Positions 10,939-55,727 are shown, counted from the stretch's first letter. The stretch: DNA of 64,000 nucleotides from an uncultured Alphaproteobacteria bacterium (GCA_903874955.1 CAIQTY010000051.1:2686-66685); one strand, 5' to 3'. The notes: a model not told the origin generated them from the letters alone. Numbers and translations: made by a program.

Positions 10939-12027
10939 CTAATTTATTTTAAGGTTATTAACGGCCTTTAAAATTACGGAAAGACTTTCATAGGGTGTAT
11001 CAGATAACGCTAAAATTAAGCGCGGTTTATGATATGTATCTACTCCTTTTTTTAAGCTATGAAATGCTTCTTGAATTAATATGATGTGTTTTGGCGATAT
11101 TCTAATTAATGAGAAAATTAAACCACCTTTAAAATTTAGTATTATATCTTTATTTAAATCATTTGTTGGGTCTGTTGAATTTTTTATGAGATCCGTTATA
11201 GGATCTATTAGTAGGGGAATATCTTCTATAGGCACTTTAGACAACTCGCAGGTTATGCCAGCTTTAAAATCAATGCTTAATCCAGGTGTAAGATGATTTA
11301 TAGCTGTTTCAACTATAGAAGTATTTTCTGGCGATATCTCAGACAATGCAGTAATCACATTTATTTTTTGCAATATATTCATCTTATTTGTAATGCGAAA
11401 TATAGCTGCTTCAGTCTCTTGAAGATGTTCTGGAAATATTTTAAGTAGTGCACAAATTACGCGTGTTTTTTCATCTGTATTCATGCCAAGTGTTATTTGG
11501 TTTGTAGCAGCTTGAATTGCCTTGAGATGGTTTATAACCAGGCACTTTTTTGGTATATTTGGTAACGTGGTAAGGATAACGACTTTATTATATTGATCGA
11601 TTCCTGATGTTAGAAAATTAGCTGCCTCTTCAATAAGTTTGAGATATTCTGGTGTCATGTTATCCAATGGTATATTGCACAGCGCTGAAATTATTGTGAG
11701 CTTGTATTCAGGCTTTATACCCGCTGTTAGACGATTTAAAGAGGGTACAATAAGCGAAAAATGCTCTGCGGATAAATTAGATAATATTGCTTTAGCGTTG
11801 AATTTAAGAGAATCAGGCAAATCTTTTGTTAAGTATAAGTTATCTCTATGAGGAGCTGTAGTATTTGGAAGTGAAAAAACTTTTGAATCTTGATGGTCAA
11901 TAGGTTTATTTATCTCAGCTTGTGCAAAATTGGTTGAATGGCAAATAAGGATTATTATTATTCTAAACTTTAAAAATTTTAATAATATAATAAGTAAATA
12001 TGATGCTTCTTTGTTTTTTTTGACCAT
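10939..12027 (-). CDS. secreted tandem-repeat protein (~34-38-aa helical repeats)
   Basis: Leader, then at least 7 repeats of the type hL(T)xGhxxxxKxxhIxALxxIPxxxxxxhxxA (LNRLTAGIKPEYKLTIISALCNIPLD..., ANFLTSGIDQYNKVVILTTLPNIPKK..., INHLTPGLSIDFKAGITCELSKVPIE...). Confidence 0.6.
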   Translation of the reverse strand: MVKKNKEASYLLIILLKFLKFRIIIILICHSTNFAQAEINKPIDHQDSKVFSLPNTTAPHRDNLYLTKDLPDSLKFNAKAILSNLSAEHFSLIVPSLNRLTAGIKPEYKLTIISALCNIPLDNMTPEYLKLIEEAANFLTSGIDQYNKVVILTTLPNIPKKCLVINHLKAIQAATNQITLGMNTDEKTRVICALLKIFPEHLQETEAAIFRITNKMNILQKINVITALSEISPENTSIVETAINHLTPGLSIDFKAGITCELSKVPIEDIPLLIDPITDLIKNSTDPTNDLNKDIILNFKGGLIFSLIRISPKHIILIQEAFHSLKKGVDTYHKPRLILALSDTPYESLSVILKAVNNLKIN

Positions 12028-14798: not shown

Positions 14799-17522
14799 TT
14801 ATCTAATGGCCTGGCATGCGATTGCTAATTGCTGGGCCATTGCTTCTTTTCGTTCTGGTGCATCACTTAAAAATCTTAGTTCGGCCAAAGCAACAAAAGC
14901 GCTAATGAAATTTGAATTTGCTTTTGCGTATTCATTAAAGAATGCATAAAAATTGGGAGCGTTAGTTTTCATATCAGACAAGACTGCTTCTAACGCCTTT
15001 TGCATATTATTTCCGAAATCTGGAGAACTAAATGTGTGCATTTTCTCATAAAAATACTTCGAGAATAATTGAGAAGCTATTTCGGCAGAAAAATTTGTGC
15101 TCACTGGATTAGCAAAAAATTCCTTAATTTTTGACTTTTGGTCAGGTTTTGCTGTTTTTAAAAATTCAATAAACTGATAGGCATTGATAATATCCGTAGC
15201 TTGTTTTTTCTCAAGTCCACCGTCTTCAAGGTAATTAAATACTGTATCAAGTAAATCATTATCAACAATGAAAGTGCTTAATTTAGTATCATTAGTATCA
15301 TGAGTTCTGTATTTATATAGAAGACTTAATATTCCGGATTTTAGTTCTTTTGACAATTTGTCATTCTGCTTCAACCTATTAAATAGGGCGATAGCAAAAT
15401 TGAGCATTTTTTTATCTTCAATTGATCCATAATCTAAGCAATTCTGATTGACTGCTGCATCGTGTAATAAGTCTACTAAAGTGATTTCCTGATTTTTATA
15501 TTTCATAGTATTATAGCTATTTAAAGTGTTGTAATTTTTTCCTAAATTTATTACTCTGTTTGCCTTGAATGGTTGCAGTAATTTTGGATAGTTCTCAACA
15601 ACTTCATTGGCAAATTTTTCTGGACTCATATCAATTAAATGTTTGAGCCAATTAATATATAGGCTGCCTAGATTCTTAAATATGTTGTGTTTATCGGATT
15701 TTAAGAAAGTAGCTAGTGTAGCTGGGGCCCCGATAGGTATTTCCTTATCACTAATTGGGGTAATATCTGAACTAGTCGAAGAAGAACTTCCACTACCAGC
15801 AATTCCTGAAATTATTTTCATCTTTTTACGATCAGCCACATCAGGCAATTTGATTCCAAGTCTATTGAGCATATCCTGATCGGTTTCATCTTGTATTGGC
15901 TGCGTGCGTGATTTACCAAGTGCTTTATCGAACTTTCTGTCGCTAAGTGAGGTATTGACGGTTAGGCTTTCACGATTATCGATTTCATTTTCGGTTAGTT
16001 TATGTTTGCGATTTTTAAATTGATCTTGAATTTTTTTAGCAGCAAGTTGCCTTTCCTCATTAAGTTTCTGCAGCATTTTTTCCCGGAGTATTCCAGGGGC
16101 AAAGCTTGGATTTTGATCCTTTAACTGAGCATAGAGTAAGGCATTTTTTATATTCAAAACGCCTTTGCCCCAAAAGGCTGGATCATAAGCAGAGGGTTTT
16201 TTTACAGGGGCAGGTGAAGCGCTTGGGGCAATTTTTGAAGCTAATTCTAGTAACTTCGTGCGGTGATCTTTTTCAAGTTGATCACCTGTCCTAAATGGAA
16301 GCTGATTGATGCTATTAGGATTCATTCCGTTGCTAACTAATTTTTCTAAAATACGTTTATATTGATCTGTTTCAGCATTTGTAGCCGGTCTTGGGTTGAT
16401 TCCTCCCACGCCGTTACCTGCGGCAATAATTTGCAGTGCTAATTCGATTTCTCCTGAATCTGCTAATAATTCTGCGAAGTCTAAAGTTGATTTACCTGGA
16501 TTAGATTTTTTGTATTGCTGAAGTTTTTGAATGATATTGACCAGAGGGTCTTCAACATGGACGGCATCATAACCTGATCCAAAAAGCTGAAAGATATCTC
16601 TATCTGCAGATTCTAGTAAAATTTCTTTTAACAGAGCAGTGGTTAAAGATGGATATTTTGATAAGATAAGTGCTGCTGCACCCGATAGAATAGCTGCTGC
16701 ATTTGACGTACCAGATTTAGGTGAATATTGGTTTGAATTTTCAGGTCCGGATGCGGTAAAGATCTCATCAGCGATTACCCATAAAAAACTATCTTGAAAT
16801 TTTTTGTTAGAGCCAGGAAATCCTGACGAGGTTTTGCCCTTATAATCTTGGCGTAAATTGCCTGCAAAAATTGAAAGCGGTATTAAGAGATCACAGTTGT
16901 TCATTGAAGGAACTTTAGACAAGTTTTCTTGTGAATTACCTGCAGCTTTTACGATAAGGACATCACTATCACGCGGAATCTCTTGAAATGTTGTTTTATA
17001 AAAGTCTGGCTTATCGTCACCAAACGACGCATTGATAATTCTTACATTAATTAGGTTATTTTTATAATCGTTAATTGGTTTTACGCGAATGGCTGAACTT
17101 GGGGCAATGGCATGGATTAAGCTTGCCATTGAAGAACCATGATCTTGACCTTCTTCAAAACCAAAAATTGGATTTGTTGGTGAGTCCCTTTCTACATAAG
17201 TTCTAACATCTTGGTGGGTAATACCAGAATCTTCTAGCAATAGGATGTTGACACCAGCACCTTTAATGCCTCGTTTTTGCGCATACCCAGCGCCTGAGGC
17301 AGCGAATGCTGAAGTACCTTTGAGAAATTTATAGTCTTCTTCGCTTATTCCATTGGTTTGCTTGCGAGCATTCTTGAGCAGTTCGGTGCGAAGCTCTAAA
17401 TCTGTTTTTCCAGAGTCATCTTCCATCTTACTTAGCCGCTTTTGGTAATCAATGTACGGATCGCTGCTTCCTGCGGCGTTTAAGGTCATATTTAGAAAAA
17501 ACAGAATAAAGTATTTTTGCAT
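14799..17522 (-). CDS. secreted subtilisin-like (S8) serine peptidase with a long C-terminal helical domain (paralogue A)
   Basis: Catalytic D (NILLLEDSGITH), H (QDHGSSMASLIHAIAP), oxyanion N (RIINASFG) and S (SGTSNAAAILSGAAAL). Start reassigned to MQKYFILFFLNMTLNAAG (ATG at 17522). It is collinear with the 33050..35503 protein in both the N-terminal and C-terminal domains. Confidence 0.85.
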   Translation of the reverse strand: MQKYFILFFLNMTLNAAGSSDPYIDYQKRLSKMEDDSGKTDLELRTELLKNARKQTNGISEEDYKFLKGTSAFAASGAGYAQKRGIKGAGVNILLLEDSGITHQDVRTYVERDSPTNPIFGFEEGQDHGSSMASLIHAIAPSSAIRVKPINDYKNNLINVRIINASFGDDKPDFYKTTFQEIPRDSDVLIVKAAGNSQENLSKVPSMNNCDLLIPLSIFAGNLRQDYKGKTSSGFPGSNKKFQDSFLWVIADEIFTASGPENSNQYSPKSGTSNAAAILSGAAALILSKYPSLTTALLKEILLESADRDIFQLFGSGYDAVHVEDPLVNIIQKLQQYKKSNPGKSTLDFAELLADSGEIELALQIIAAGNGVGGINPRPATNAETDQYKRILEKLVSNGMNPNSINQLPFRTGDQLEKDHRTKLLELASKIAPSASPAPVKKPSAYDPAFWGKGVLNIKNALLYAQLKDQNPSFAPGILREKMLQKLNEERQLAAKKIQDQFKNRKHKLTENEIDNRESLTVNTSLSDRKFDKALGKSRTQPIQDETDQDMLNRLGIKLPDVADRKKMKIISGIAGSGSSSSTSSDITPISDKEIPIGAPATLATFLKSDKHNIFKNLGSLYINWLKHLIDMSPEKFANEVVENYPKLLQPFKANRVINLGKNYNTLNSYNTMKYKNQEITLVDLLHDAAVNQNCLDYGSIEDKKMLNFAIALFNRLKQNDKLSKELKSGILSLLYKYRTHDTNDTKLSTFIVDNDLLDTVFNYLEDGGLEKKQATDIINAYQFIEFLKTAKPDQKSKIKEFFANPVSTNFSAEIASQLFSKYFYEKMHTFSSPDFGNNMQKALEAVLSDMKTNAPNFYAFFNEYAKANSNFISAFVALAELRFLSDAPERKEAMAQQLAIACQAIR

Positions 17523-17773
17523 ATATTTTTTTAAATGATTTTTAATATACAATTTTAACTTAGTTTTTTTTAATATTTCGTTAAAAACATAAAGGACTTT
17601 AGAATAATTCTTGCTCTTATGAAAATTGAGTAGGTATAGGTATAATTCATTGAAATAAAAGTCATGTATGGTCGTCAAAGTAGGAACCCTAGCTCGTGAA
17701 ATAACATTGGCTAAAAGGACTATAAGGATGGTGGGACGTAATGGCTCACTTTTAGAATATATCAAAATACTGA

Positions 17774-17942
17774 TCAATTTAAAAAACGCCCGCAGGCTTT
17801 TGCTAAAGAATCAACCATTGCTGTTTGATGTTTATCGATTAAAATAGTTCCTTGAAATTCTTGAATAAGCGCATTTGTAAAATAAGAATTACCTTTTGCA
17901 TGGGGTTTCAGAAAATCAACAGCAATTCCCGGACAAATTTTT
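17774..17942 (-). pseudogene. 3' stub (last ~55 codons plus stop) of a third subtilase paralogue
   Basis: Translates to KICPGIAVDFLKPHAKGNSYFTNALIQEFQGTILIDKHQTAMVDSLAKACGRFLN*, compared with ...IPDFVDFLKTYAKGNPHFTNALIQEFQGTILFNEQRLIMGNHLVAACRNILI* at the end of 33050..35503. There is ~90 nt of near-identity (17846-17935 vs 33122-33205). An in-frame stop lies immediately upstream. Confidence 0.8.
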
Positions 17943-19174: not shown

Positions 19175-19879
19175 ATGGCAAATTTTCTGATGATTGCAGC
19201 ATCCAGTGCAATGGGTGTAGCCACAGCATCTATTTTAGAAAAAAATGGTCATCAAGTTTTTAAAACCGCTCGGTCAAGTGAGAAAATTCAACCGGATTTG
19301 TTACTTGATGCTAGTGATTTTGATGCAGTTGATGGGGCGTTTGAAAAAGCTATTGAACGGTTTGGAACAATTGATGGCGTAGTTTGTTTTGCTGGCTCAT
19401 TATTATTAAAGCCAGCCCATTTAACGACAAAGCAAAATTATCAAGATGTTATCCAAAGTTCCCTAACAACAGCGTTTGCATCAACTCGAAGTGCTGCAAA
19501 ATATATGAAGGGAGGGTCGGTTGTGTTAATGGCATCGGCGGTGCATTCTATTGGCCTTGCCAATCATGAAATGATTGCCGCTGCAAAAGCAGGGGTTGTT
19601 GGGTTAGCAAAATCAGCTGCTGCTACTTATGCAGCATCTAATCTCAGGTTTAATGTTGTAAGCCCAGGTTTAACGGACACACCCCTTACGGAGCGGATTA
19701 TAGCTAATCTGAATTCTTTAAAATATTCCCTTAATATGCATCCTTTAGGGCGAATTGGTGGGGTTGATGACATCGCAAGGGCGGTTGTTTTTTTGCTAGA
19801 TCCCTTAAATAGCTGGATTACGGGACAAGTTTTAAGCGTTGATGGCGGTTTATCGAGTTTGAAAACTCAAGCTTCATGA
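19175..19879 (+). CDS. SDR-family oxidoreductase, first gene of the photolyase operon
   Basis: Rossmann N-terminus (LMIAASSAMG), YAASNLRFNVVSPGLTDTPL and ITGQVLSVDGG. It overlaps the next gene by 4 bp (ATGA). Confidence 0.8.
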   Translation: MANFLMIAASSAMGVATASILEKNGHQVFKTARSSEKIQPDLLLDASDFDAVDGAFEKAIERFGTIDGVVCFAGSLLLKPAHLTTKQNYQDVIQSSLTTAFASTRSAAKYMKGGSVVLMASAVHSIGLANHEMIAAAKAGVVGLAKSAAATYAASNLRFNVVSPGLTDTPLTERIIANLNSLKYSLNMHPLGRIGGVDDIARAVVFLLDPLNSWITGQVLSVDGGLSSLKTQAS

Positions 19880-21411
19880 AAACGCTCCGGGTACTTTTGT
19901 GGGATCAATTATCCCTTAAAATCTCGAGTTTGCGCGATAGCAATCCCCAAGATGATACAGTCTTGATTTGTGAGATAATGCAAGAATGCACCTATGTTAA
20001 GCACCACAAGAAAAAGCTTATTTTTATTCTGTCTGCGATGCGGCATTTTGCAAAAGAACTTGAGAATAAGGGCTTTAGGGTTATTTATGTAAAACTAGAT
20101 GACTCCCTTAATACGGATACGCTTGAAGGGGAAATCAGTCGCACCATTAATTTGGAAAAATTTGATAACATCGTTGTAACCTGGCCAGGTGAGTACCGTC
20201 TTTTAAAGATTCTTGAAAAAATAAAATCTTCAATTTCCACCCCTTTAATTATAAAGGAAGATGACCGTTTTCTAGCAACAATAAGTGAATTTCAGGTTTG
20301 GGCATCAAAGCGCCGAGAACTGCGCATGGAATATTTCTACCGGGAAATGCGCCAAAAATATCAAATTTTGATGAATGGTAAAGATCCTGAAGGGGGAAAA
20401 TGGAATTTTGATGCTGAAAATCGCAAAGTCCCCAAAGGGAAATTAAGCATTCCTCAACCCTATACATCAAAGCCAGATAGCATCACGCAAGAGGTCATAG
20501 CACTGGTTGAATATCATTTTCCAGATAATTTCGGAGACATATCTCCCTTTCATTTTGCGGTGACTGCAAGCCAAGCACACCAAGCCTTTGATCAATTTAT
20601 TGCTGAAAGACTCGCTTTTTTTGGGGATTATCAAGACGCGATGATTGAAAATGAACCCTGGATGTACCATTCACACATTAGTTTTTATATTAACATCGGG
20701 CTGCTTGACCCTATTGAATGCATAAAAAGAGTTGAAAAAGCCTATTACGATGGGTTTGTATCGATTAATAGTGCTGAAGGTTTTATAAGGCAAATACTTG
20801 GGTGGCGCGAATATGTCCGCGGTATTTATTGGCTTAAAATGCCTGAATATAAAGAAATGAATTTTCTTGAAGCCTCACGGCCGTTGCCCGAATTTTTTTG
20901 GACGGGCGATACCAAAATGAATTGCTTGAAGCAATGCGTTACCGAAACTAAAGAAAATGCCTATGCGCATCATATCCAGCGCCTGATAGTTCTTGGAAAT
21001 TTTGCGCTAATTGCTGGAATCAACCCCCAGGAAGTGAATGAATGGTACTTAATTGTTTATGCTGATGCCTTTGAATGGGTAGAGCTTCCCAACGTGACGG
21101 GCATGATTTTATTTGCTGATGGGGGATATCTTGGCAGCAAGCCCTATGCGGCAAGCGGCGCCTATATCAATAAAATGTCGAACTATTGCCAAAATTGCCA
21201 TTACAATGTGAATGAAAAAAATGGCCCCAAAGCTTGTCCGTTTAATTATTTGTATTGGGATTTCCTGATTCGTCAGCAAGATAAATTAAAAACTAATCAT
21301 CGCCTTACCATGATATATTCTCTTTTGCAGAAAAAAGATTCGGCTGCTATTGAGATGATTAAGCAGGATGCCAAGAATTTTTTCGAAAAATTAGAACACG
21401 GTGAAACTTAA
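19876..21411 (+). CDS. phrB: FeS-BCP / PhrB-like cryptochrome-photolyase family protein, probable (6-4) photolyase
   Basis: Collinear by motif with Agrobacterium PhrB: [61 protein letters not shown]. It also has the Fe-S cysteine set (C-x2-C...C at YCQNCHY...[11 protein letters not shown]). Confidence 0.9.
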
Positions 21412-21548
21412 TGGCCCATAAAAAAGAAAATCTTCCGGAAAAAATCTGTATTGTTTGTAAGCGTCCTTTTACCTGGCGGAAAAAATGGGAAAAAGTCTGG
21501 GACGAGGTGAAATACTGCTCACAAAAGTGTAAAAAGGCGAAAGCATGA
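21411..21548 (+). CDS. DUF2256-type small zinc-ribbon protein (45 aa); not in the supplied ORF track
   Basis: [45 protein letters not shown]. It has two CxxC pairs and the RxxW-x3-W motif. The start overlaps the phrB-like stop (TAATG) and the stop overlaps the next start (ATGA). Confidence 0.75.
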
Positions 21549-23086
21549 GTGCTACAAATGCAAAATTTTGCATTGTCTGGTTTAAGCGTGATTTACGCAT
21601 TGCTGACCACGAACCGCTAGCAAAGGCTTGCGCAACTGGCCTACCTATTTTGCCCCTATACATTCTAGAGCCTACCTATTGGATGCTACCTGATGTATCA
21701 TGCCGTCATTGGCATTTTATTTACGATTCTTTATGCGAACTTCAAAATGCGCTGGTCCAAAAAGGAGTTCCTCTTATTATTCGGGTAGGGGATGTCACTG
21801 AGATTTTTGAAAACCTGCGCAATCAATTTGGTAAATTCCAATTATTTTCCCATGAGGAGACCGGAAATGGTTGGACTTATAAGCGTGATAGGGAAGTTGC
21901 TGCCTGGTGCAGTTCCCATGGAATTTTTTGGAAGGAATTTCAATCGAATGGTGTTGTTAGAAAACTTGTAAATCGCGACCTTTGGGCGGATCTTAGGAAC
22001 GCAGCTATGTGCAAACTAGTTATAGCAACCCCACAAAAAATCTATGCTTTACCGAGTGTTCCAACCCAAGAAATTCCAACAAAAGATCACCTGATGTTTG
22101 GTGCAACCGGGATAGGTAATGTCCAAAGGGGAGGGCGTGCACAGGGATTAAGTATTCTAGAATCTTTCTTAAAAGAGCGTGGTCGCTGTTATATGCAAAC
22201 GATTTCGAAACCCGGCGTATCGGCTAGAAATTGTTCCAGATTATCAGCTCATATATCCTATGGGACTCTATCGATTAAAGAAATCGAACAAGCAACACGC
22301 CTTAAAATAAAACAGTTAAGCCAATCCCGTAACGAATTTAATATCAGCTTTGTAAGTAATTTATCGGCTTTTTTATCAAGGCTCGCGTGGCGGTGTCATT
22401 TTGTGCAAAAGCTTGAACAACAACCTAGTATTGAATTTTCATGCATGCATCCTGCTTTTGAAGGAATGCGAGAAAATCAATTTAACGATCGGTATTTTAG
22501 GGCATGGCAAGAAGGTAAAACGGGTTATCCATTAGTAGATGCGTGTATGCGTTCTCTTCATCAAAATGGTTGGATTACCTTTAGAATGCGTGCCATGCTT
22601 GTAAGCTTTGCAAGTTACCATCTTTGGCTTGATTGGCGGCAAACAGCTCCTTTTATGGCAAAGCTGTTTACCGATTATGAACCTGGCATTCATTACAGTC
22701 AGTTTCAAATGCAATCAGGAGTAACAGGTATTAATGCTGTGCGAATTTATAATCCGATTAAGCAATCGATCGACCAAGATCCAGAAGGGACGTTCATTAA
22801 ACGTTATGTGCCTGAGCTTGGGGAGGTTTCCAAAACTTGGATTCATGAATCTTGGAGGAATCCTTGTCCTCCAAAAGACTACCCTAAACCGATTGTTGAC
22901 CTTGTCCAGGCTACTAAATATGCTCGAGATCAAATAAGTAGCCATCACAAAACAGAGGGCTTTAGGGACGATGCTAACATTGTTAAACAAAAACTTGCGA
23001 GCCGCAAAATCACGAGTCCAAAAAGGGTTTTTACCAAAAAGCAAAAGGATGTAACTTTGTCAAAACAACGAGAATTTAAATTTTAA
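21545..23086 (+). CDS. cryptochrome/deoxyribodipyrimidine photolyase family protein
   Basis: [17 protein letters not shown]-terminus, [14 protein letters not shown]...[16 protein letters not shown] and [32 protein letters not shown] (FAD-binding domain). Confidence 0.85.
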
Positions 23087-23597: not shown

Positions 23598-24470
23598 CTA
23601 TGACCTTAATTGGTTTTTTAAGAGCTGTCTGTTCTTATACCAATCTCTATCGTCCGCATAATCCATTTTTCTTAAAAAGGACGTCATATCAGATATAAAA
23701 GGATAGTCAAATGTCGGACCCCAACCACCTAAATATTTAGGAAAATTAAGATTTCCCGCCCTTAGTAACTCAACAGCATAAGAATGTGAGGCTCTATTAT
23801 ACCCAAACATTGTTTTTAGTTTAGGTATCTTTTGATCCCCTAACGCTTTTTGGGTGATTCTCATTGCATCAATCGCTAAAATTGGTTTTGTAAAAAACGT
23901 TTTATAAAAAACTTCCTTACCGTTCTCTGGTTCATGATTGGGACACATCTTTCTTCTTATCGTTTCAAAATCAATAATTTGGACCTGACCGTCGGCTAGA
24001 CTAAAGCCTATACAATAGAACCTACTATCTTTAAAAGGAGAGCCATTATCATTTGAGCGGATGCGAAAGCTTTGTTTTATATTTATATCTGATGTTACAG
24101 TTTCACTCGGATAGGAAAAATTGATTTTATTTTTATTTTGGTATAAATCATTATCATCTCTTACAAGATTAACTCCAAGAAAGTCTGGAATAGAAACTCT
24201 TTGTTCTACAATAACTTCTCCTGATCTTAGACAAAAAGTATCAGACACGGGTTCAAGGATAGTATCTGAGAAGACAACAGCAACAATCACATTGCTAAGC
24301 TGTTTTTGTAAATCCTCAGAGATAAGCACGTTAACACTCGAAACCCCTTCTGCAAGAAATCCATCACTAAAAGGGTCATAATAACCAAATCTCTCAGCGG
24401 TCGATGCCTCAATTCTTATTGCAAAAAAATAGCTGATAATAGCAAAAGTATGCAGTTTTGATATCTTCAT
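23598..24470 (-). CDS. hypothetical secreted protein, 3' partner of the TIR gene
   Basis: 290-aa ORF with leader MKISKLHTFAIISYFFAIRIEAS. It starts 14 bp after the stop of the TIR gene on the same strand. No family recognised. Confidence 0.55.
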   Translation of the reverse strand: MKISKLHTFAIISYFFAIRIEASTAERFGYYDPFSDGFLAEGVSSVNVLISEDLQKQLSNVIVAVVFSDTILEPVSDTFCLRSGEVIVEQRVSIPDFLGVNLVRDDNDLYQNKNKINFSYPSETVTSDINIKQSFRIRSNDNGSPFKDSRFYCIGFSLADGQVQIIDFETIRRKMCPNHEPENGKEVFYKTFFTKPILAIDAMRITQKALGDQKIPKLKTMFGYNRASHSYAVELLRAGNLNFPKYLGGWGPTFDYPFISDMTSFLRKMDYADDRDWYKNRQLLKNQLRS

Positions 24471-24483
24471 TTTATTCTCCTTG

Positions 24484-25395
24484 TTAATTGATTTGATCGT
24501 AAAATCTCATTACAAAAATCGTAATTATGGCGCTTCCTATCGCAATGCAGAAACTTTTTGTATGTTCAAGTATAGGATGATTTTTCACAAATTTGTCTTT
24601 CCAGTAGTCCTGAAAAGACTGATACACAATAGGATCGACCTTAAAATTTTTGCTTGTGGGATTCACAAAGGCTGGCTTATTTTTCTGCTTTGGATCAACA
24701 AGTATTTTCTCGATTAGAATATCAATGACATTATCCTGATAATTTTTTTCAACTGAAAAATCTTTATACAAATACTCTTCTTTAGTGGTTTTTTTAGTTT
24801 GGTTAGCAGGCTGAATTAAGTCAGTAACAGCCAGTCTTTGTTCATCAGATAAGCCAATGTAAACTGGAATATAGAAGAAATTTTCATTATTTAATCTTTT
24901 TTTGATTATATCTATTTCCTTCTTTATCCACGAGTTTTGCTTGTATTGCTCTAATAAATGTGGGGTTACTACCAACACAACAAAAAAATCTGGTCGTTCT
25001 ATATTGCTTATGTATTCAGGTATGCTACTGCCTGTAGAAAGGTCTTTGACATCCAAGTAAGTTTTAACACCTGCCCGCAACAGATCGTTATTAAGCCTAA
25101 GTACAAATCTGTTATGTTGATGTCTTAGATCTTCTTCCCATGCACGGCTAATAAAACAATTTATGTTTCTATCTCCAATTGAGGTCTTAGCGAGAGATAA
25201 AACCCTTTCATATCCTATGCCTTGTGTCATTGAATGTGGACTAATTGATACGGGAAGATCATCTGCTTCATAAAGTAGACTTAAATTTGAACTATCTGCT
25301 GCACTAAGCTTCAGTGGAAAGATAACTGTCAGCACAACGAGCACTAAGAAAATGAACTTTTTAAGCACAAGGACAGTCGTCTTACAATTTTTCAT
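24484..25395 (-). CDS. TIR-domain protein with an N-terminal leader and a C-terminal hydrophobic anchor
   Basis: Leader FIFLVLVVLTVIFPLKLSA. The TIR core is CFISRAWEED...FVLRLNNDLLRAGVKTYLDVKDLSTGSSIPEYISN..RPDFFVVLVTPHLL. NSWIKKEIDII matches the SARM1-type DWVHKEI catalytic-Glu motif. The C-terminal segment is FCIAIGSAIITIFVM. Confidence 0.7.
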   Translation of the reverse strand: MKNCKTTVLVLKKFIFLVLVVLTVIFPLKLSAADSSNLSLLYEADDLPVSISPHSMTQGIGYERVLSLAKTSIGDRNINCFISRAWEEDLRHQHNRFVLRLNNDLLRAGVKTYLDVKDLSTGSSIPEYISNIERPDFFVVLVVTPHLLEQYKQNSWIKKEIDIIKKRLNNENFFYIPVYIGLSDEQRLAVTDLIQPANQTKKTTKEEYLYKDFSVEKNYQDNVIDILIEKILVDPKQKNKPAFVNPTSKNFKVDPIVYQSFQDYWKDKFVKNHPILEHTKSFCIAIGSAIITIFVMRFYDQIN

Positions 25396-25716: not shown

Positions 25717-28700
25717 CTATTCCGCATATTTTAAATGGCTAAGTAAAACAAAGTCGTTCCTACCTTCTTCTGGTGTTTGTTTCAGAATTTCAACAAAACC
25801 ATTGAGGCTATTGAAATTAAATAACTTTTTATTTTCTGTAAGAATTTCTTTCAGAGGATTAATAATACTAGCTCTGTCGTTTGATTCAATTGAGATTACT
25901 AGTTTTATAAGATCTGGAGCATTCCTATATTTCTTGATCTCGTATAACGAATTGGCATAAATCATAATTTCTTCTCTTTCATCTGCTCTTATCGAAGCAA
26001 TAGCTTCAAAAATTTCACGGTATTCATAAGTCTCTGAAAAAGCAAGTGCATGTCCTATTGCGTTATCAGTGTCATCAGTATCTTTGTCACTCCATCCTTG
26101 TAAAGCTTCCATAAGCCTGCATTTAGTATCTGTTGAAGATATCTCAGGATGCCGCAGGATAACATTTGTTATTCTTGCTATATCATCTTGCAAGGAATCA
26201 AGAGTTCGAATGATTTTTCTGACATTTTCAGCTTCTGAAGTATTCCCTGAAAGCAATTTCGTACAATATAAAATGTCATCTCTTTTTTGTGCTGCAACAT
26301 TAGAGAAAATCTCCATAATGTCATGATATTGCCCTTCATTCTGAGCATAAATATTCATTTGTGATACTTGATTACAAAAAACTTCCCATGAATCTGGAAA
26401 AACTTCAGAAAAAGCAATAATTTGTGAGCCTAGTTCATCATCTGTTCTGGCATTTCGTTTGATATTTTCAGCTTTTTCTAGAAATTCTGGCCAATCAGCA
26501 CGGTCTTGAACTTTAGCAACGGCTTTTATAATTTTCTCTATATTTCGTCCATTCATAGTTTTAGTGATTATCTGAGCTGACTTAGCAGCAGCACTCTCTT
26601 TTTTGCCCCTAGAAATCTGGCGCAAGGCTTCAAAGATATGTTTAGCACCATTTGGTGATATCAATCTATCCTTAAGTATAATAGAAGCTGCTACAGTTTC
26701 TTTTAAATTAGCTTTTACTGTTGAATCCAAGTAACCACCATAGCGACCTCCTAGCGCCAGAAGAATTTCGAAACATTCTTGCCCGTCAGCATTTTCAGGC
26801 AAAAAAGGATAAGCTACTTCTAACAAAAATTCGCAGTCTTTATACGAAACACTAAGACCTTCAGCTAAAGAATTTACGAAACTAAAATCTTGTCTATTGC
26901 TTTTCATTCTAGATTCCGCTCTATACCTGGACAAAACCATTGGATATGTCGTATCCATAATGGTTTCAACCAGCGATTCTAGCTCTACATGGCCCTTTTG
27001 CAAGTTTTCGTTTGGAATACCTCCTGTTGTCTGCTGAGCGCTTAGCTCCTCTATATATTTTTTTATGCTTTTAAGATGTCTATAAATTTTGTGAGAACTT
27101 GAATTAACTCTAATAAGCTCATCAATTGATAATTCTCTCGGGAATATAGAAAATAGACCCATACCATACTGTCCATCTTTTACCCTCCAAAGCTTTATCC
27201 ATTGCTCTTGCAATTCATTTAGTGTCCATTGAATCGTTCCCTTATTTTGTTGATCAATTCTCTCAACCAGTTGCACCAGACGATGAACCGTAACTTTTTC
27301 CTGTGCACCATATTTGACCATAGAATATCGCTGTAGCTGTTTAACGGCTTTTTCTATTTCTTCAATGCTTCCAGCATCGGTCAGAAAAACAAACCATTCA
27401 GGATCAATATGATCCGGCTCAAGATAGGAAAAATATGTTAAAAGTTGATTCGCTAATGGAGATAATTTTTCTGTACTTATTGCCCAGGTAGTTGCAACTG
27501 CATGAGGATAATCTTCCCCTTCAGGATGATAAGAAAGTAAAACAGCGGCTTTACGTATAAAAATTTGGTTATATTCACCAAAGCTTGGTTCTAACATTTC
27601 CCTTATATATCCTGCCGCATGAGACAAAGCCAAAGGAAGGTAACCTAACGTCTCTGATAGTTTTTTAGCTTGCAATAAATTTTCTTCAGTTTCTTCTATA
27701 CCTGTAACACCGAAAAGATATCTAACCGCCTCTTCCTCCTGGAAAACGCCAAGATTTAAGGCGTTAGATGGCAACCATCCATGTTGGTCACGAGAAGTCA
27801 TAAGAATATGACCATTCTTTGCAGGAATTTTATCCTTAATAAACGTCGTAGATGGAACGTTATCCAAAATTAAAAGCCACCTTTTTTTGGGGAGGTTTTG
27901 AATAATACTGCTGATTATGGATCTATTATCTGAACCTACAGTAATGCCTAGAGCCTCAAGAAGTGTTTTATAATCTTGAACCATGGCTTCTTCTGTTTCA
28001 CTACGAATCCAGTATATCACCTCATAGCCATTATTTCTGTACGCTTCGTAAGCATAAGCTAGCGCTAGTTGGCTTTTTCCTATTCCACCCATGCCAGTAA
28101 TTGTATATTTTACAAAATCACCAACAAGAGATTTCCAAACCGTTGTCAAATAACTTTCTGTTGCCCCAGGAGAAGAACTTTCAATAAAAGAATCATTTTC
28201 TGGGGGAAGGTAAAAAGGTGTTACGTAAGGAAAAATCTGCCTCCAATTTCTATCAACTAGATAAGGTTCGTCCAATTCACTTTGCCCAGATTGAAACACA
28301 TTCGCTAAAATTTTAGGTCTCTTTTTATCTCTAAACTCAATTTCTAGAGCACTTCTATCCAATAAAGTTTTAATTTCAACTAATTTTGGGTGACTCCTAA
28401 AAAAACGTTGTTCAAATAAAGGCCACATTTCTTCCCAAAATATTGCTGAATCAAATTTTCCAGTTTCAAGATTTATAGAATCCAAATATTTATACTCTTC
28501 TAGTTGTTCAGGTACTGCTGTTTCGTGTTTTCCTGCCATCAACACAGGAATTAAAAAATCAGTATTTTTGGTTTTTCTTATTCGTCGTTCAACGTGTTTC
28601 AGCTCCTCAGGATAAAACGGACCATTATCAAGCACTTTTTGCTTGCCTAAGGGAGTTAAAATAAACAAAACAAAATCACTATTCTCAACGCCATTCTTCA

Positions 28701-29061
28701 TAAACTCAAAGATATTTTCGCCAGGCTCTAGATCTCCATTCTCATCATAAATAGCTTTGATTCCCATTAATTTTAGGTTTGTTACTATGCGTTTTTGCTC
28801 TCTCAAAACATCTAGGTCTTCTCCGTCATTACAGTGAGCGATAAAACACGTTGGTCCACTGTTACCAACAATCGCTCCCAGAGAACTAAGATAACTATGT
28901 AATCTCTCATCCGAACCTACAGGAAATTTAGGTGCTTCTTTATAAGGATTTGGTTTAGCATTAGTGTTTCCGGCATCAAGAACTGTCGGGAAAAAAGCTA
29001 CTGAAAGAAGCCCTAATAAGAAATGTTTTTTGCAAGTAAAATATGATTTATTGTTCTTCAT
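25717..29061 (-). CDS. TIR / NB-ARC (STAND NTPase) / helical-repeat protein with a Sec-type leader
   Basis: Start taken at MKNNKSYFTCKKHFLLGLLSVAFFPTVLDAG. A TIR-like block (TCFIAHCNDGED...DFVLFILTP...FLIPVLMAG) is followed by NB-ARC motifs: P-loop TGMGGIGKSQLA, Walker B RWLLILDNV, HILMTSRD, and a GLPL-like LGYLPLALSHAAGYI. The C-terminal ~330 aa consist of ~35-aa helical repeats. Confidence 0.75.
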   Translation of the reverse strand: MKNNKSYFTCKKHFLLGLLSVAFFPTVLDAGNTNAKPNPYKEAPKFPVGSDERLHSYLSSLGAIVGNSGPTCFIAHCNDGEDLDVLREQKRIVTNLKLMGIKAIYDENGDLEPGENIFEFMKNGVENSDFVLFILTPLGKQKVLDNGPFYPEELKHVERRIRKTKNTDFLIPVLMAGKHETAVPEQLEEYKYLDSINLETGKFDSAIFWEEMWPLFEQRFFRSHPKLVEIKTLLDRSALEIEFRDKKRPKILANVFQSGQSELDEPYLVDRNWRQIFPYVTPFYLPPENDSFIESSSPGATESYLTTVWKSLVGDFVKYTITGMGGIGKSQLALAYAYEAYRNNGYEVIYWIRSETEEAMVQDYKTLLEALGITVGSDNRSIISSIIQNLPKKRWLLILDNVPSTTFIKDKIPAKNGHILMTSRDQHGWLPSNALNLGVFQEEEAVRYLFGVTGIEETEENLLQAKKLSETLGYLPLALSHAAGYIREMLEPSFGEYNQIFIRKAAVLLSYHPEGEDYPHAVATTWAISTEKLSPLANQLLTYFSYLEPDHIDPEWFVFLTDAGSIEEIEKAVKQLQRYSMVKYGAQEKVTVHRLVQLVERIDQQNKGTIQWTLNELQEQWIKLWRVKDGQYGMGLFSIFPRELSIDELIRVNSSSHKIYRHLKSIKKYIEELSAQQTTGGIPNENLQKGHVELESLVETIMDTTYPMVLSRYRAESRMKSNRQDFSFVNSLAEGLSVSYKDCEFLLEVAYPFLPENADGQECFEILLALGGRYGGYLDSTVKANLKETVAASIILKDRLISPNGAKHIFEALRQISRGKKESAAAKSAQIITKTMNGRNIEKIIKAVAKVQDRADWPEFLEKAENIKRNARTDDELGSQIIAFSEVFPDSWEVFCNQVSQMNIYAQNEGQYHDIMEIFSNVAAQKRDDILYCTKLLSGNTSEAENVRKIIRTLDSLQDDIARITNVILRHPEISSTDTKCRLMEALQGWSDKDTDDTDNAIGHALAFSETYEYREIFEAIASIRADEREEIMIYANSLYEIKKYRNAPDLIKLVISIESNDRASIINPLKEILTENKKLFNFNSLNGFVEILKQTPEEGRNDFVLLSHLKYAE

Positions 29062-29560
29062 GTTCAGGATGCTGTAACTTTCTAGCATTTAGAAAAACTG
29101 ATTAAAACGATCCCAGCCAATTGAAATTACAAGCTTTTTTCACTTGAAAGTTATAGAAAAACAAACCGTGAACTTTTTTACAAATTTCTCTTTATGTTTT
29201 TACGTCCTGAAAAGGTCCCTTTACTGAAAACAACTTGGCGAATTTCATTCACCAGTGAGTTCTCAACGGACGAGTATAAAATACAAAGTATCTGCAGCAA
29301 AAAGAATCCGATTAACCTTAATGCCTCTTTTTTCATAAGTTTCCTCATGTGTTAGGTGTTATGCGGTGATCAATTAAAGTAATCAGCGCGTTCCACTTCT
29401 TGACGAGGCAACCGTAAGGAAAAAGATAAAGGTATTTTATCCGCAGAATCCCCCTAAAAGCATCCCTTAGGTAAAAAACCCCTAGAAATAAAAACTTAAG
29501 GTGGGCTAGGGTGTACTTCGATAACGATTAGGCATATATTCTTGCGTATGATCATTATAG

Positions 29561-32500
29561 ATGCATAACGTGCAATATCCTTCTCGCTCTGGTTCCGATG
29601 ATTTTAAGCAATTAAAAATAATTCGGGGAGTATCACTTTCTCCTAGGGAGATCGATGTTCTGGCTTGCCTGCTTAGCGGCAAGGCAATGAAATCGATTGG
29701 GACTCTTTTATCAACTTCCCCTCGAACCGTTGAAACCCATATGCGGTCTATCATGCTTAAATTCGGATGTGGTTCGCGCGAGAAAGTTATTGAGTTCGCC
29801 GAAAAGTCTCTGCAGTTTTCGTCTTTAAAAAACCACTATACGCTATTATTGCGGGAGTCTGCTTTTAAAAAAACCCTGGAAAAAATCGCTGGTTTTACTA
29901 AAAAAAATCCGGCAGCTTCTTTTGTTATTTATGGAGCGCAACAACAGTCGCCTTTTTTGCAAGAGCTTGCAGGTTTTTGTAAAACCGCCGGTCTTGCCAT
30001 TACGGTTACCTATAAAACACCGGCATCATCCCTCTCCGTAGTGGAACTTACGCCAGAGGTGGCAGTGATTTGCAGACAAGAAGGTAGCTTAAATACTCCG
30101 CTACTATTTGTGTCTAATGAATCGGTTTTCGCTTCTGATCTTTTACCAAAGATTAACAATATTGATTTTGTTGATTTTTCCCTTGCGCAAGATTCCACCC
30201 TAAGTAACGCTGAACATTTTTACGGAGCAACATTTGAGGTCTTAAAAAAAATCCTACCCGAAACCCCTGTGGATTCAATTTCAGCTGATTTTTTGGATCA
30301 TCACAATCGAAGTCCATCGACAGTTTTAAAACGTGATTTTTCCGAAAGTATACCGGATGCAAAAGAACGTTCTCCGATTTCGTTGAAGTTAAGTTTTTTA
30401 CCTCGATTAAGGATAGGAGTTTTAGTATTATACATTCTTTTAATCGCTATCGTATATGGATTAAGTCAATACCATTCCAAACAAGATAATCTCGTTAGGT
30501 CTGATTTCGTGCTACCCCATAAAAGTGCTCTGCTTGAGAGAACAAATTTATTATCAAAGATTGAATCTTGTTTTAACACTCAAGAATCTGGTATTAGAAA
30601 TGTCGCTTTAGTTGGCATAGGTGGCGCAGGAAAGACGACTTTATCAAGAATTTACGCACGTACCCACAAATTTCAAGTGATGTGGGAAATCAATTCAGAA
30701 ACAAAAGATCACTTGTTAAATTCTTTTAATGAATTAGCGTCTTTACTAGCAAAATCTAAAGAGCAACGAGAAGAACTCCATCAGATTCAAAGCATCATCA
30801 ATATTAAGCTCAAAGAGAAGCAGCTCCTTGCATTTGTAAAAAGTCGTTTGAAAGAGATTTCAGATTGGTTGTTGATTTACGATAATGTGGACAGTTTTGC
30901 GGACATGAAATCCTATTTTCCCGATGACCCTGAAGTTTGGGGAAATGGCAGAGTAATGATTACAACACGAGATTCCAACATTGCCAACACAAACCAGATA
31001 AGGGCAGAAAATATCGTCAGGCTTGAAGAATTAAGCGCAACTGAAGCCCTTACGTTTTTTTGCAAAATCCTTTACGACCAGCCCGTTGAAAAGTTACCCG
31101 TATTACAGCGAGAGAGAGTATCCCTGCTTTTAAAGAATATTCCTTGCTTTCCTCTAGATATCGCAGCAGCGGCGTACCACATAAAAGATACAGATATCAG
31201 TGTGGAACAATACCTCAAGACAATAAGCACGCCAGCCAATCAAGACTTTGAAGAATTTCAGCAACGTTTGTTTAAGTACTCCATTGACTATGGATTTAGC
31301 AGGTATAAGCTACTAACGCTTTCTTTTGAAAAAATCCTTGAAGAAAATACTGAATTTCAGGAGTTATTATTACTGCTGATTTTATTTGATTCTCAAGACA
31401 TTCCTAAAGACCTTTTGTATGCATACAAACCAGCACATGTCGTAGATACTTTTATTCGAGTTCTGAAAAAACATTCTTTAATAACAACCAGACAACACAA
31501 ATTCGAAAATACCTCCATTTCCACGATTTCATTACACCGGGAAACGCAAAACACCGGGAGAAATTTTCTCCTTAAAGAAATAGACAATAATGCGGCTAAA
31601 ACCATCAATAAAATTGTAACGCAAGCATTAACTTATAGTGAGAACTGTATTAATAGAAATTTCCACCAAGGAATTCTCTTTTTGCCTCATTTACAAGAAT
31701 TGTCGAAGAGTCTTTTAAAAGCAGTTAAGCACCTCCCTTCTTTAAAACCTAATATACCAAAAATTTATTATGCTATTGGCAATACACATTTTAGGTGCAC
31801 GCGCAATTTAATTTTAGCTAAGGACTATTTCATCCAAGCTTTTAATTCTCATATTGATGGAGGAAAAGATTTGGATAGTTTTAGGATAAAACTTCTTTTA
31901 AATCGGCTTACAACTATTTGTAATGATCTAGAACAACCCGATGAAGCAATTTTTTATGCCAAAGAATTCCTAAAACAAAAAGAAGGCCACGATCCACTAA
32001 AAATTGCCAATCTATATGCCCTAGCAAGAGCCTACAATTATAAAAACGATTTTCATGTGTCAAAGATGTACTATGAAAAAGCCTTAAAAATACTCCATAC
32101 CTTTAAAGAAACAAATGGCTCTAGCTTTGAAGCAGAATTAAAAACTTCTCTAGGATTTTCTTTACTTGACTTTGAGTCTGAGATCTATGCTTCCTTAGGC
32201 TGGCTGTATAGTACAACTTTCATTGCATTAGAAAAAGCACAACCAGCATTCGGTTATTTGAAAAAAGCCCTTAAATTAATAAATGCTGAAAAAAGCGTTA
32301 TAGGACAACCTAAAAACAAGGTAATATCAAGTTCTATAGCAAGAATTAGACTAGATATTGGAGACACATACTGTCGTGCTGGTCTTTACGATCAAGCCGA
32401 AAGTGAGGGTTTTAAAGAAGCGGAGTACATCATTGATCATCGTCTTGATGATTGTCCGCACAAACTTTTAAAGGTTTATATTCAAGTAGGTATGAGCGAA

Positions 32501-54147: not shown

Positions 54148-54151
<4 letters not shown>
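54056..54151 (+). pseudogene. 3' stub of an emrB-like (DHA2 MFS) paralogue fused in frame to the transposase fragment
   Basis: NMITLFTFALAGFAIWLAPKLHRKADTSATH* compared with the end of the 917..2470 protein, HIFMVTSVTFAFAASAIWLAPKPQRTADTSAAH*. Confidence 0.7.
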
Positions 54152-55626
<1,475 letters not shown>

Positions 55627-55727
55627 GATATATCCTAAATTTATAATTGATAGGGAACATAACATCATTATATTGCATTTTCAATATAAAAATAGTAACA
55701 AAATGCCAAGTTATTCAATTTTATTAG

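Follow-up and report, generated by a model that had tools for sequence, protein, structure and literature searches.

In plants, animals and bacteria alike, the known STAND/NLR switches that carry a TIR head serve immunity from within the cytosol, and a protein of this architecture that opens with an export signal raises the question of where it works and on whose behalf. The case we study comes from an uncultured alphaproteobacterium, in a window of 64,000 nts (the whole stretch of DNA analysed). The first-pass annotation described there a plant-TNL-like TIR, NB-ARC and repeat protein with a Sec-type signal peptide, and proposed either a host-delivered effector that mimics or hijacks STAND/TIR signalling or an unusual topology. 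We conclude that the most likely place of action of this NLR-like protein is the host interface, beyond the bacterial cytoplasm, which would set it apart from ordinary anti-phage sensors inside the cell.

The coding sequence (25717..29061, minus strand) has 1114 aa plus a stop from an MKNNKSYF start, which is also the start in the public gene calls, and residues are numbered on this form throughout. An alternative first ATG at 29088 (ORF 25717..29088, minus) gives 1123 aa, nine residues more, and no Shine-Dalgarno motif is seen ahead of either ATG (29061, 29088). Past residue 1, the reading frame offers its next start codons only within the TIR fold, a TTG at aa 86 and an ATG at aa 99. The concern that the true start lies downstream is thus removed: there is no start codon between leader and TIR fold, and the leader cannot be skipped because no alternative start leaves the TIR intact. 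Near-identical copies of the gene occur in at least five independent metagenome contigs, and it is intact in several independent assemblies, with strain variants 1-4 substitutions apart, too few for testing selection on the leader. Rfam has no match within the window.

The leader itself (aa 1-30; 28972..29061, minus) is a predicted Sec-type signal peptide according to heuristic rules and conservation. The signal peptidase I rule calls for a positive n-region, a hydrophobic h-region of 7-15 residues, and positions -3 and -1 occupied by small or aliphatic side chains. By heuristic rules only, the leader has this anatomy, with an n-region MKNNKSYFTCKKH of charge +4, an h-region FLLGLLSVAFF, a c-region PTVLDA, and a predicted cleavage at A30|G31 with Pro at -6, L at -3 and A at -1. 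A stable transmembrane helix or signal-anchor takes some 19 or more residues with a mean Kyte-Doolittle hydropathy of at least 1.6. The leader falls short of a single-pass signal-anchor, since its maximum is 1.52 (19-residue window) and its uncharged hydrophobic core has 11-15 residues including a helix-breaking Pro. As a sanity check, six signal peptides of E. coli known from textbooks were scored in the same way, and the leader's values fall inside their range. There is no lipoprotein lipobox (L-[AS]-[GA]-C), as no Cys follows the h-region and the sole leader Cys (position 10) is in the n-region, nor is there an RR in the n-region as in a Tat signal. The net charge is +4 before the core and about +1 after it, which by the positive-inside rule gives an N-in, C-out orientation. 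In the AlphaFold2 model the leader is disordered, and the predicted cleavage is followed by a disordered linker (aa 31-49; 28915..28971, minus; pLDDT < 50) with the first five residues uncharged. Its anatomy supports the leader as a cleavable Sec signal, not a stable anchor, and as a real part of the protein.

The TIR domain spans aa 50-238 in the model (28348..28914, minus), and the Pfam TIR_2 profile (PF13676) scores 37.0 bits at aa 90-195 against a gathering cutoff of 28, so the TIR-like block noticed earlier is detected by profile. AlphaFold2 gives a confident alpha/beta TIR fold over aa 50-238 (pLDDT about 90). Enzymatic, NADase-type TIRs have a conserved Glu after the betaC strand, at the WxxxE / SxWCxxEL position, and a putative catalytic Glu lies within FYPEEL (aa 149-154), which falls opposite WCQYEL of a TLR TIR domain in a weak alignment (E = 0.005). 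The only PADLOC match to the protein is a bSEFIR-like match on the TIR; the Avs/AVAST and other STAND defence models of PADLOC have none. A disordered, non-hydrophobic linker without a transmembrane segment (aa 239-270; 28252..28347, minus) joins the TIR to the NB-ARC.

The NB-ARC STAND ATPase with its winged helix/DUF7779 (aa 271-615; 27217..28251, minus) is identified by profile, motifs and model. Pfam NB-ARC (PF00931) scores 38.5 bits against a cutoff of 23.5, and Pfam DUF7779 28.8 bits against 27. The motifs include Walker A GMGGIGKS (323-330), Walker B LLILDNV (396-402), MTSRD (421-425) with the sensor-1 TSR at 422-424, LGYLPLALSHAAGYI (472-486) with the GxLPLAL at 473-479 (GYLPLAL), and an MHD-like VHRLVQ (592-597); all those quoted in the first-pass annotation are present. 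The key switch residues are invariant across 13 clade members, and this invariance implies that the protein must have access to nucleotide at its site of action. The domain is confident in AlphaFold2 (aa 280-610, pLDDT about 90), and Foldseek matches it to Apaf-1, CED-4 and plant NLRs, with a target-normalised TM-score of 0.68 to the NRC1 NB-ARC. By its sequence matches, this NB-ARC is bacterial in type, and its nearest counterparts are the NB-ARC-TPR proteins of the bacterial FxSxx-COOH kind. The corresponding model, NCBIfam NF040586 (FxSxx-COOH system TPR protein), hits aa 305-599 only, with 175 bits where membership takes 300, and covers model positions 15-326 of 830, leaving the TPR half unmatched.

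The remainder of the protein is all-alpha in the AlphaFold2 model. A helical spacer with lower model confidence (aa 616-837; 26551..27216, minus) is common only to P0002, P0003, P0242 and P0244 among the relatives. It is followed by seven two-helix repeats of about 35 aa, modelled as an alpha-solenoid (aa 838-1080; 25822..26550, minus), whose helix pairs begin at 838, 874, 909, 944, 977, 1012 and 1048 in the AlphaFold2 model, a period of 33-36 residues. The sequence of this C-terminal region is self-similar with peaks at offsets 31-35 (z about 3-4), the best-preserved unit is aa 1012-1040 (repeat HMM, E = 1.3e-10), and a separate model of the repeat region reaches pLDDT 84 and pTM 0.74. The repeats of about 35 aa that had been read from the sequence alone are thus confirmed. 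Pfam has no family for them and no LRR match, and a Foldseek search of the repeat model against the PDB gives no significant match. As modelled, the repeat is an undescribed solenoid family. A weak likeness to TAL-effector repeats is geometric only (E of 0.02 or higher), and we do not claim nucleic-acid binding. A few other proteins have the repeat too, several of them also opening with a signal-like leader, and it may represent a novel scaffold for recognising ligands.

As relatives we take the listed 120 best NB-ARC matches. The leader is flagged in 13 of the 20 best-scoring relatives versus 4 of the 100 others (Fisher p = 1.6e-9). In an NJ tree, the clade around the NLR-like protein has 15 members, from Paracaedimonas, Odyssella, Paracaedibacter and metagenomes, and at least 10 of its 13 full-length members have the leader; it is absent from P0013, and from P0242 if that sequence is complete. 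Its position and character are kept in paralogues and among proteins whose identity is no more than 24-45%. Within the clade it precedes exchangeable heads: TIR/SEFIR-like, sulfotransferase, and weak patatin and trypsin-like matches. (An OTU-like motif suspected in the P0020 N-terminus was dropped, as Pfam does not detect it.) In distant TIR-NB-ARC-TPR proteins of free-living bacteria, the TIR strand comes first, with no leader ahead of it. Just downstream of the NLR-like gene, a 303-aa leader+TIR paralogue (24484..25395, minus) has a signal peptide with predicted cleavage LSA|A, then a TIR and, near its C-terminus, a transmembrane helix (aa 281-299). The two leaders align from residue 1 with the cleavage sites in register, and the paralogue's SWIKKEI falls opposite the catalytic-Glu motifs SWCLDEL (AtTIR) and TWCLEEL (ROQ1) in weak alignments. 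A homologue search with the leader+TIR module finds a single relative, the standalone leader+TIR protein P0252. Because the NLR-like protein is colinear with both P0252 and the 303-aa paralogue, we infer that leader and TIR were inherited as one module. Anatomy, start codons, homology and conservation all bear out the Sec-type leader on this TIR/NB-ARC/repeat protein. Since the leader is signal-like and conserved in relatives, TIR and NB-ARC are predicted to lie outside the bacterial cytoplasm.

Other searches bear on origin and context. The gene neighbourhoods of P0003 and P0014 have transposases and no conserved partner genes, so a multi-gene system is not supported. Origin by transfer from a host, as from an amoebal NB-ARC-TPR protein, was considered and rejected: the listed 120 best matches are almost all bacterial or metagenomic, with some named fungal proteins and no named amoebal ones. 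In a profile search of genome contigs with the clade alignment, the matches listed are Actinomycetota NB-ARC-TPR genes, with no symbiont relatives.

The source bacterium is, from its gene sequences, an uncultured relative of the Paracaedibacteraceae (Holosporales); by UvrB identity, its nearest named relatives are Ca. Finniella (71%) and Ca. Paracaedibacter (70%). T6SS cargo normally has no Sec signals. Members of the Paracaedibacteraceae live in the cytoplasm of protist hosts. Secretion in the lineage is reported as only Sec and a non-standard T6SS, and a related symbiont with Sec and T6SS has 158 signal-peptide proteins, TPR and ankyrin proteins among these. Titles in a review's reference list indicate that periplasmic proteins of Holospora are released into the host during infection. 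An ATPase outside the bacterial cytoplasm was the paradox posed by the first-pass annotation, and the cytoplasm-dwelling kin remove it, as host ATP and NAD+ would be found beyond the inner membrane.

The explanation we favour, with an even chance of being right, is a Sec-exported NLR-type switch of a Paracaedibacteraceae-like protist endosymbiont, acting in a host-facing compartment that may be the periplasm, the host cytosol, or both. Judging from its anatomy and conservation, the 30-residue leader would take the unfolded chain through SecYEG and be cut after Ala30. The mature protein would then fold where host-derived ATP and NAD+ are present, as expected for bacteria that lie naked in the host cytoplasm and whose relatives, from established knowledge and the literature, take up host nucleotides through the inner membrane. 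The C-terminal solenoid of about 35-aa repeats would, as in other STAND sensors, bind a ligand, here of host or competitor origin. The NB-ARC, with its fully conserved switch motifs, would swap ADP for ATP and oligomerise. The clustered TIRs, in which a putative catalytic Glu is seen, could become NAD+ hydrolases, signal-nucleotide synthases or scaffolds, and their activity would conditionally alter or kill the host cell. For the final location, we lean somewhat towards release into the host cytosol over a permanent stay in the periplasm. Delivery beyond the outer membrane is something we infer; we identified no route across that membrane for the NLR-like protein, and its large mature size (about 120 kDa) also counts against the explanation.

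One form of export stops short of the host cytosol: a periplasm-resident sensor would monitor host molecules, receive host ATP via porins, and consume NAD+ or signal at the envelope through its TIR. By itself a Sec leader guarantees only the periplasm, and several proteins point that way. The NB-ARC of the divergent LuxR-TM-NB-ARC-TPR neighbour (see below) is predicted to be tethered periplasmically and cannot be released, and the 303-aa paralogue bears its C-terminal anchor. In P0005 and P0007, TIR-like domain and NB-ARC are separated by a strong transmembrane helix, which predicts a cytoplasmic NB-ARC and a TIR/SEFIR-like domain held outside, tethered at the periplasmic face; the family is then not uniformly fully exported, and the unusual topology proposed at the outset stays alive as an alternative. 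A STAND NTPase domain is also predicted to be periplasmic in the NACHT-CLec of Thiohalocapsa PB-PSB1, a diversity-generating retroelement target (PMC10907252), although that protein is of the NACHT clade, has a C-type lectin sensor, comes from a free-living multicellular bacterium, and is placed by transmembrane segments and not by a cleavable leader. Against periplasmic residence, an ATP-dependent STAND switch working in a periplasm has no known precedent, the variable heads of the clade resemble host-directed effectors, and the NLR-like protein itself lacks a membrane tether. We regard this sub-case as rather unlikely.

An uncleaved leader could instead anchor a protein whose bulk stays in the bacterial cytoplasm, as a TIR-STAND sensor of the usual kind, for abortive infection or against phage, placed at the membrane. 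In free-living bacteria, TIR-NB-ARC-repeat proteins serve as conflict systems of the cytoplasm, homologues occur in transposase-rich variable regions resembling defence islands, and P0005 and P0007 have their NB-ARC predicted on the cytoplasmic side. The positive-inside orientation argues for the opposite topology, however, and the short Pro-containing core, the small-residue cleavage motif and a hydropathy below anchor level are not those of an anchor; the lack of PADLOC STAND matches also speaks against cytoplasmic defence. We consider it improbable. Least probable by far is that the leader is non-functional or mis-annotated, a chance hydrophobic stretch or a relic on a soluble cytoplasmic protein. 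It could draw on the missing Shine-Dalgarno motifs and on a leader judged by heuristics, but no downstream start preserves the TIR, the leader is conserved among divergent proteins and paralogues, and the gene is intact across assemblies.

Comparison with known systems sets the exported switch apart from each of them. Bacterial TIR-NB-ARC-TPR STANDs (Actinomycetota, Cyanobacteria, Chloroflexota) have the same order of TIR, NB-ARC, winged helix/DUF7779 and helical repeats, with NB-ARCs 25-34% identical to this one, but they lack a leader and end in TPRs, where the NLR-like protein has a Sec-type leader and the undescribed repeat. Plant TNLs (RPP1, ROQ1, WRR4A) likewise combine TIR, NB-ARC and a C-terminal repeat sensor, and the NB-ARC fold matches resistosome subunits by Foldseek; yet they have LRRs and a C-JID/post-LRR domain, of which the NLR-like protein has neither, their NB-ARC sequence similarity is marginal (ZAR1, E = 0.007), and they are cytosolic without a signal peptide, in contrast to a leader-bearing protein of bacterial ancestry. 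The description as plant-TNL-like therefore holds for the domain order and fails for the C-terminus, which is not LRR, and for the bacterial-type NB-ARC; mimicry or hijacking of host STAND/TIR signalling is not supported. Avs/AVAST and bNACHT share the tripartite logic of sensor, ATPase and effector, but act in the bacterial cytoplasm and belong to a different NB-ARC clade. Host-directed TIR effectors (Brucella BtpA/TcpB and BtpB, Pseudomonas PumA, uropathogenic E. coli TcpC, P. syringae HopAM1) are bacterial TIRs with, likewise, a presumed action in eukaryotic hosts. They are small TIR proteins, and HopAM1 uses a type III system; none is known to have an NB-ARC switch, sensor repeats or dependence on a Sec leader. 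BtpA and BtpB are reported to affect host NAD metabolism and to be delivered by a type IV secretion system (PMC7188309). NB-ARC/Apaf-1-like and NACHT modules are described, in portions of two papers, in the eukaryotic association module of Wolbachia phage WO and in rickettsial OTU-domain proteins, and their authors propose that they target host cell-death pathways (PMC5062602, PMC6133264). These also belong to obligate intracellular bacteria, but to Rickettsiales in arthropods, and the same portions describe them as joined to OTU/CE-clan proteases, ankyrin repeats and a latrotoxin C-terminal domain, often of animal-derived look, and report no TIR head or Sec leader.

If the whole device is exported, an architecture of immunity would have been turned into a conditional effector that is gated by a ligand and directed at the host, or else into a sensor in the envelope powered by host ATP. 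The question of how Holosporales manipulate, protect or addict their hosts would then have a concrete candidate that can be tested, and the range of places in which NB-ARC ATPases are believed to function would widen. A bolder generalisation, which we offer tentatively and hold as possible though doubtful, is that Paracaedibacteraceae endosymbionts export whole NLR-type receptors (variable head, NB-ARC, variable repeats), so that the bacterium runs a ligand-triggered switch, NAD+-destroying or with another effector, inside a eukaryotic cell. If true, it would be an outsourced immune or addiction module, firing for example on a competitor, a virus or the loss of the symbiont, with the corollary, suggested by the divergent LuxR-TM-NB-ARC-TPR neighbour, that where bacteria are bathed in host ATP their periplasm can be a working place for STAND ATPases.

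Divergently from the NLR-like gene, a 1152-aa protein (29561..33019, plus) combines a LuxR/GerE helix-turn-helix, a transmembrane helix (aa 283-301), an NB-ARC and TPRs. With a single strong transmembrane helix, the predicted topology places its helix-turn-helix in the cytoplasm and its NB-ARC outside, and the protein would be a ToxR-like transcription factor in the membrane, with the NB-ARC as its sensor. That it controls the NLR-like gene is a guess; the intergenic region (29062-29560) has no palindromic operator that we could find, and promoter-like sites are no commoner than in shuffled sequence. Besides the leader-TIR-TM paralogue, the locus encodes a leader-Sel1-YoeB-like toxin, and both, as further instances of leaders on domains usually regarded as cytoplasmic, speak for the export reading.

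The leader-TIR-NB-ARC-repeat protein lies on the minus strand of the window. From its first ATG the open reading frame covers 25717..29088 (1123 aa); public gene calls use the MKNNKSYF start (25717..29061, 1114 aa), and all residue numbers refer to this shorter form. The protein recurs on at least five metagenome contigs, with strain variants that differ by only 1-4 residues. The first-pass annotation described a plant-TNL-like TIR/NB-ARC protein, and both domains are found by Pfam, TIR_2 with 37.0 bits (cutoff 28) and NB-ARC with 38.5 bits (cutoff 23.5), while DUF7779, the winged-helix part of this type of NB-ARC, reaches 28.8 bits (cutoff 27). All the motifs it had listed are present, GMGGIGKS at 323-330, LLILDNV at 396-402, MTSRD at 421-425 and LGYLPLALSHAAGYI at 472-486, and to these we add an MHD-like VHRLVQ at 592-597. 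In the TIR, the Glu of FYPEEL aligns weakly (E = 0.005) with the conserved Glu of WCxxEL. The last ~500 residues have no Pfam match. By these profiles the protein belongs to the TIR_2 and NB-ARC families. It is not a plant-type TNL, as it has neither LRR nor C-JID, nor an FxSxx-COOH TPR protein, whose model it matches with 175 bits (cutoff 300) and without the TPR half, and it is not among the catalogued Avs or other anti-phage STAND proteins.

The N-terminus has the anatomy of a Sec signal peptide: an n-region MKNNKSYFTCKKH with four Lys, an h-region FLLGLLSVAFF, and a c-region PTVLDA in which positions -6, -3 and -1 are Pro, Leu and Ala; the next five residues carry no charge. The leader sequence has neither a lipobox nor a twin-arginine motif, and its best 19-residue Kyte-Doolittle window is 1.52, under the usual anchor value of 1.6. 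The call uses simple heuristic rules, which flag none of the evident cytoplasmic proteins in the window (UvrB, photolyase and T6SS sheath, for example); by the same rules the leader lies inside the span of values that six textbook E. coli signal peptides give. A true start further downstream, which would have removed the leader, is not what we find: the next in-frame starts, at aa 86 (TTG) and aa 99 (ATG), are both inside the TIR past its first strand, so that a protein starting without the leader would have a broken TIR fold. Residues 1-137 align colinearly from Met1 (29% identity, E = 1e-7) with a 303-aa paralogue encoded downstream, and FPTVLDA↓G is in register with the canonical cleavage motif FPLKLSA↓A of that paralogue; leader and TIR are thus a single inherited module. 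The same layout of leader and TIR occurs in P0252, a standalone 274-aa relative with 38% identity (P handles designate homologous proteins from our searches). Taken from the start-codon positions, the paralogue alignment and P0252 together, the predicted leader is a robust call.

In an AlphaFold2 model from 63 aligned sequences (mean pLDDT 75.5), aa 1-49 are disordered, the TIR fold at aa 50-238 is confident (pLDDT about 90), a non-hydrophobic linker at 238-266 is disordered, the NB-ARC at 280-610 is again confident, and the remainder is all-helical. Foldseek groups the modelled ATPase with Apaf-1, CED-4 and plant resistosome subunits; the NB-ARC of NRC1 gives a TM-score of 0.68, normalised to the target of the Foldseek search. 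From residue 838 on, modelled helix pairs start at 838, 874, 909, 944, 977, 1012 and 1048, and this period of 33-36 residues agrees with a weak periodicity of the sequence at offsets 31-35 (z about 3-4). Modelled separately, aa 738-1114 (pLDDT 84, pTM 0.74) has no significant Foldseek match in the PDB, the nearest being TAL-effector and designed helical repeats with E of 0.02 or higher.

The C-terminal repeat is an undescribed helical family. An exhaustive HMMER search of the last 502 residues against 1.84 billion representative proteins finds only 13 proteins. These include P0242 and P0247, NB-ARC proteins with the same type of tail, and pure repeat proteins (P0243, P0245, P0246 and P0250) with 13-16 tandem units of ~35-37 aa, a repeat for which Pfam has no model. 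The consensus is roughly xxIIxAIxxIPxDDRExVLxxAKxLITxxMxG. The repeat is degenerate in our protein, where the copy at aa 1012-1040 matches the repeat HMM with E = 1.3e-10. A signal-like leader appears again on the repeat proteins P0245, P0246 and P0249. The predicted solenoid geometry of the repeat family (P0243, P0245, P0246, P0249, P0250) is weakly TAL-effector-like.

The best relatives of the NB-ARC come from Ca. Paracaedimonas (plasmid), Ca. Odyssella, Ca. Paracaedibacter and metagenomes. A quick neighbour-joining tree of the NB-ARC region places the protein in a clade of 15 members, small and mostly metagenomic, in which P0003 ends at a contig end and P0242 may be incomplete. An automated rule finds a signal-like N-terminus in 13 of the 20 best-scoring relatives versus 4 of the remaining 100 (Fisher p = 1.6e-9). 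Inspection by eye finds a leader in at least 10 of the 13 full-length clade members, among them the textbook cases P0014 (…SLAVKA↓SD) and P0015; P0020, absent from the tree because its NB-ARC region is too short, also has one (…PMAQS↓AN by rule). In distant TIR-NB-ARC-TPR proteins of Cyanobacteria, Chloroflexota and Actinomycetota the N-terminus is directly the TIR beta-strand. Within the clade, the heads that follow the leader are interchangeable (TIR/SEFIR-like, sulfotransferase, and weak patatin and trypsin-like matches), as are the tails (Sel1, TPR or the new repeat), and the alignment is invariant at the Walker A Lys, the Walker B Asp, TSR, PLAL and the His of the MHD-like motif. The clade thus follows the modular grammar known from NLR-type switches, to which an export signal is added. 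P0005 and P0007, from a Ca. Paracaedimonas acanthamoebae plasmid and a metagenome relative, have a leader, a SEFIR/TIR-like domain, a strong TM helix (IIIGGVFIGLILIPCLFMP), an NB-ARC and a long tail, an order that predicts a TIR-like head tethered outside the inner membrane with the ATPase on the opposite side, inside.

Several neighbouring genes also carry leaders. The 303-aa paralogue (24484..25395, -) has a signal peptide, a TIR in which SWIKKEI lines up with the AtTIR and ROQ1 motif that holds the catalytic Glu, and a C-terminal TM helix. After 13 nt comes a 290-aa protein (23598..24470, -) that bears a leader and matches no Pfam family; the two, on the same strand downstream of the TIR/NB-ARC gene, possibly form one operon. 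Upstream, the intergenic region has a putative 56-aa ORF (29178..29348, -) whose N-terminus is hydrophobic and signal-like (MRKLMKKEALRLIGFFLLQILCILYSS…), with an AGGA motif ahead of its internal ATG. The divergent neighbour (29561..33019, +; 1152 aa) combines an N-terminal LuxR/GerE HTH, one strong TM helix, an NB-ARC and TPR. The helix (aa 283-301, Kyte-Doolittle 2.49, net +3 on its N-terminal side) predicts an NB-ARC tethered at the periplasmic face, a ToxR-like topology in which the STAND ATPase would be a periplasmic sensor; its relative P0006 (GerE, NB-ARC and Sel1) has no TM helix at the same threshold. A 742-aa Sel1/TPR protein (35718..37946, +) begins with a signal-like leader (…VPEVYG↓SS) and ends in a YoeB-like mRNA-interferase domain (31 bits, Pfam cutoff 27), one more toxin domain that normally stays in the cytoplasm but here follows an export signal. 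Two large subtilisin-family proteases, of 992 aa (14799..17777, -) and 817 aa (33050..35503, -), lie in the same neighbourhood. Further ORFs with signal-like leaders and no Pfam family (4461..6119, 8665..9432, 10939..12027, 38016..38897, 54148..55668 and 61028..63394) recall, by analogy, the large lineage-specific secretome reported for Ca. Bodocaedibacter.

The UvrB of the window is 86-88% identical to many metagenome sequences, and its closest named relatives are Ca. Finniella inopinata (71%), Ca. Paracaedibacter symbiosus (70%) and a Paracaedibacteraceae MAG (69%), which identifies the source as an uncultured Holosporales/Paracaedibacteraceae-like alphaproteobacterium. Paracaedibacteraceae inhabit amoebae, cercozoans, ciliates and kinetoplastids, where they lie free in the cytoplasm (PMC11909080, Table 1). 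According to a reference cited there, Caedibacter caryophilus, of the same order, has a nucleotide transporter whose substrates are host nucleotides in the periplasm. A review of Holosporales gives the T6SS as the conserved secretion system of the lineage. In the window, TssB (VipA) and TssC (VipB) are fused into a single 642-aa sheath ORF (40768..42696, +) near a gp25/TssE baseplate protein (43344..43877, +), an arrangement in keeping with the "non-standard" T6SS known from Holosporales. The 190-aa ORF that separates them lacks a Pfam match and is possibly a divergent Hcp.

An ATPase outside the cytoplasm had looked paradoxical in the first-pass annotation, and the paradox dissolves with the identity of the organism as a dweller in host cytoplasm. 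For a bacterium lying naked there, host ATP and NAD+ supply the far side of the inner membrane, and for this reason we rate a Sec-exported NLR-type switch working in a host-facing compartment as the most likely reading, though with moderate confidence. The domain identities, the intact switch motifs, the anatomy and clade-wide conservation of the leader, and the lineage of the organism are what the analysis shows. In the mechanism we infer beyond this, the leader would be translocated and cleaved, the solenoid would bind a ligand, ATP would drive oligomerisation, and the TIR would then be activated for NADase chemistry. The leader could instead be a C-in membrane anchor of an ordinary defence protein, but this goes against the positive-inside rule, and the core is short and contains Pro; we find it improbable. 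That the leader has no meaning at all seems to us very unlikely indeed.

For the exported switch, we rate the host cytosol slightly above the periplasm as the final location. Release into the host is suggested by the effector-like heads of the clade, by the nearby leader-Sel1-YoeB-like toxin protein, by a related symbiont with 158 signal-peptide proteins, TPR and ankyrin proteins included (PMC8163844), and by periplasmic proteins of Holospora that are released into the host, going by titles in the review's references. Retention in the envelope is suggested by the lack of a known outer-membrane route, by the predicted periplasmic tethering of the divergent neighbour's NB-ARC, and by the TM helix of P0005 and P0007 that would hold a TIR-like head outside. 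For Wolbachia phage WO and for rickettsial modular proteins, earlier authors have proposed that obligate intracellular bacteria aim STAND modules at the host (PMC5062602 and PMC6133264), and a periplasmic NACHT has been predicted once (PMC10907252). In the literature we found no description of a leader-bearing TIR/NB-ARC clade in Holosporales, nor does the Holosporales review mention either domain.

Elsewhere in the window, a DPRP-family photolyase-related protein sits beside a class I DNA photolyase (19876..23086, +), next to UvrB (12142..14190), which makes up a kit for light-dependent repair in a bacterium that presumably lives inside cells.
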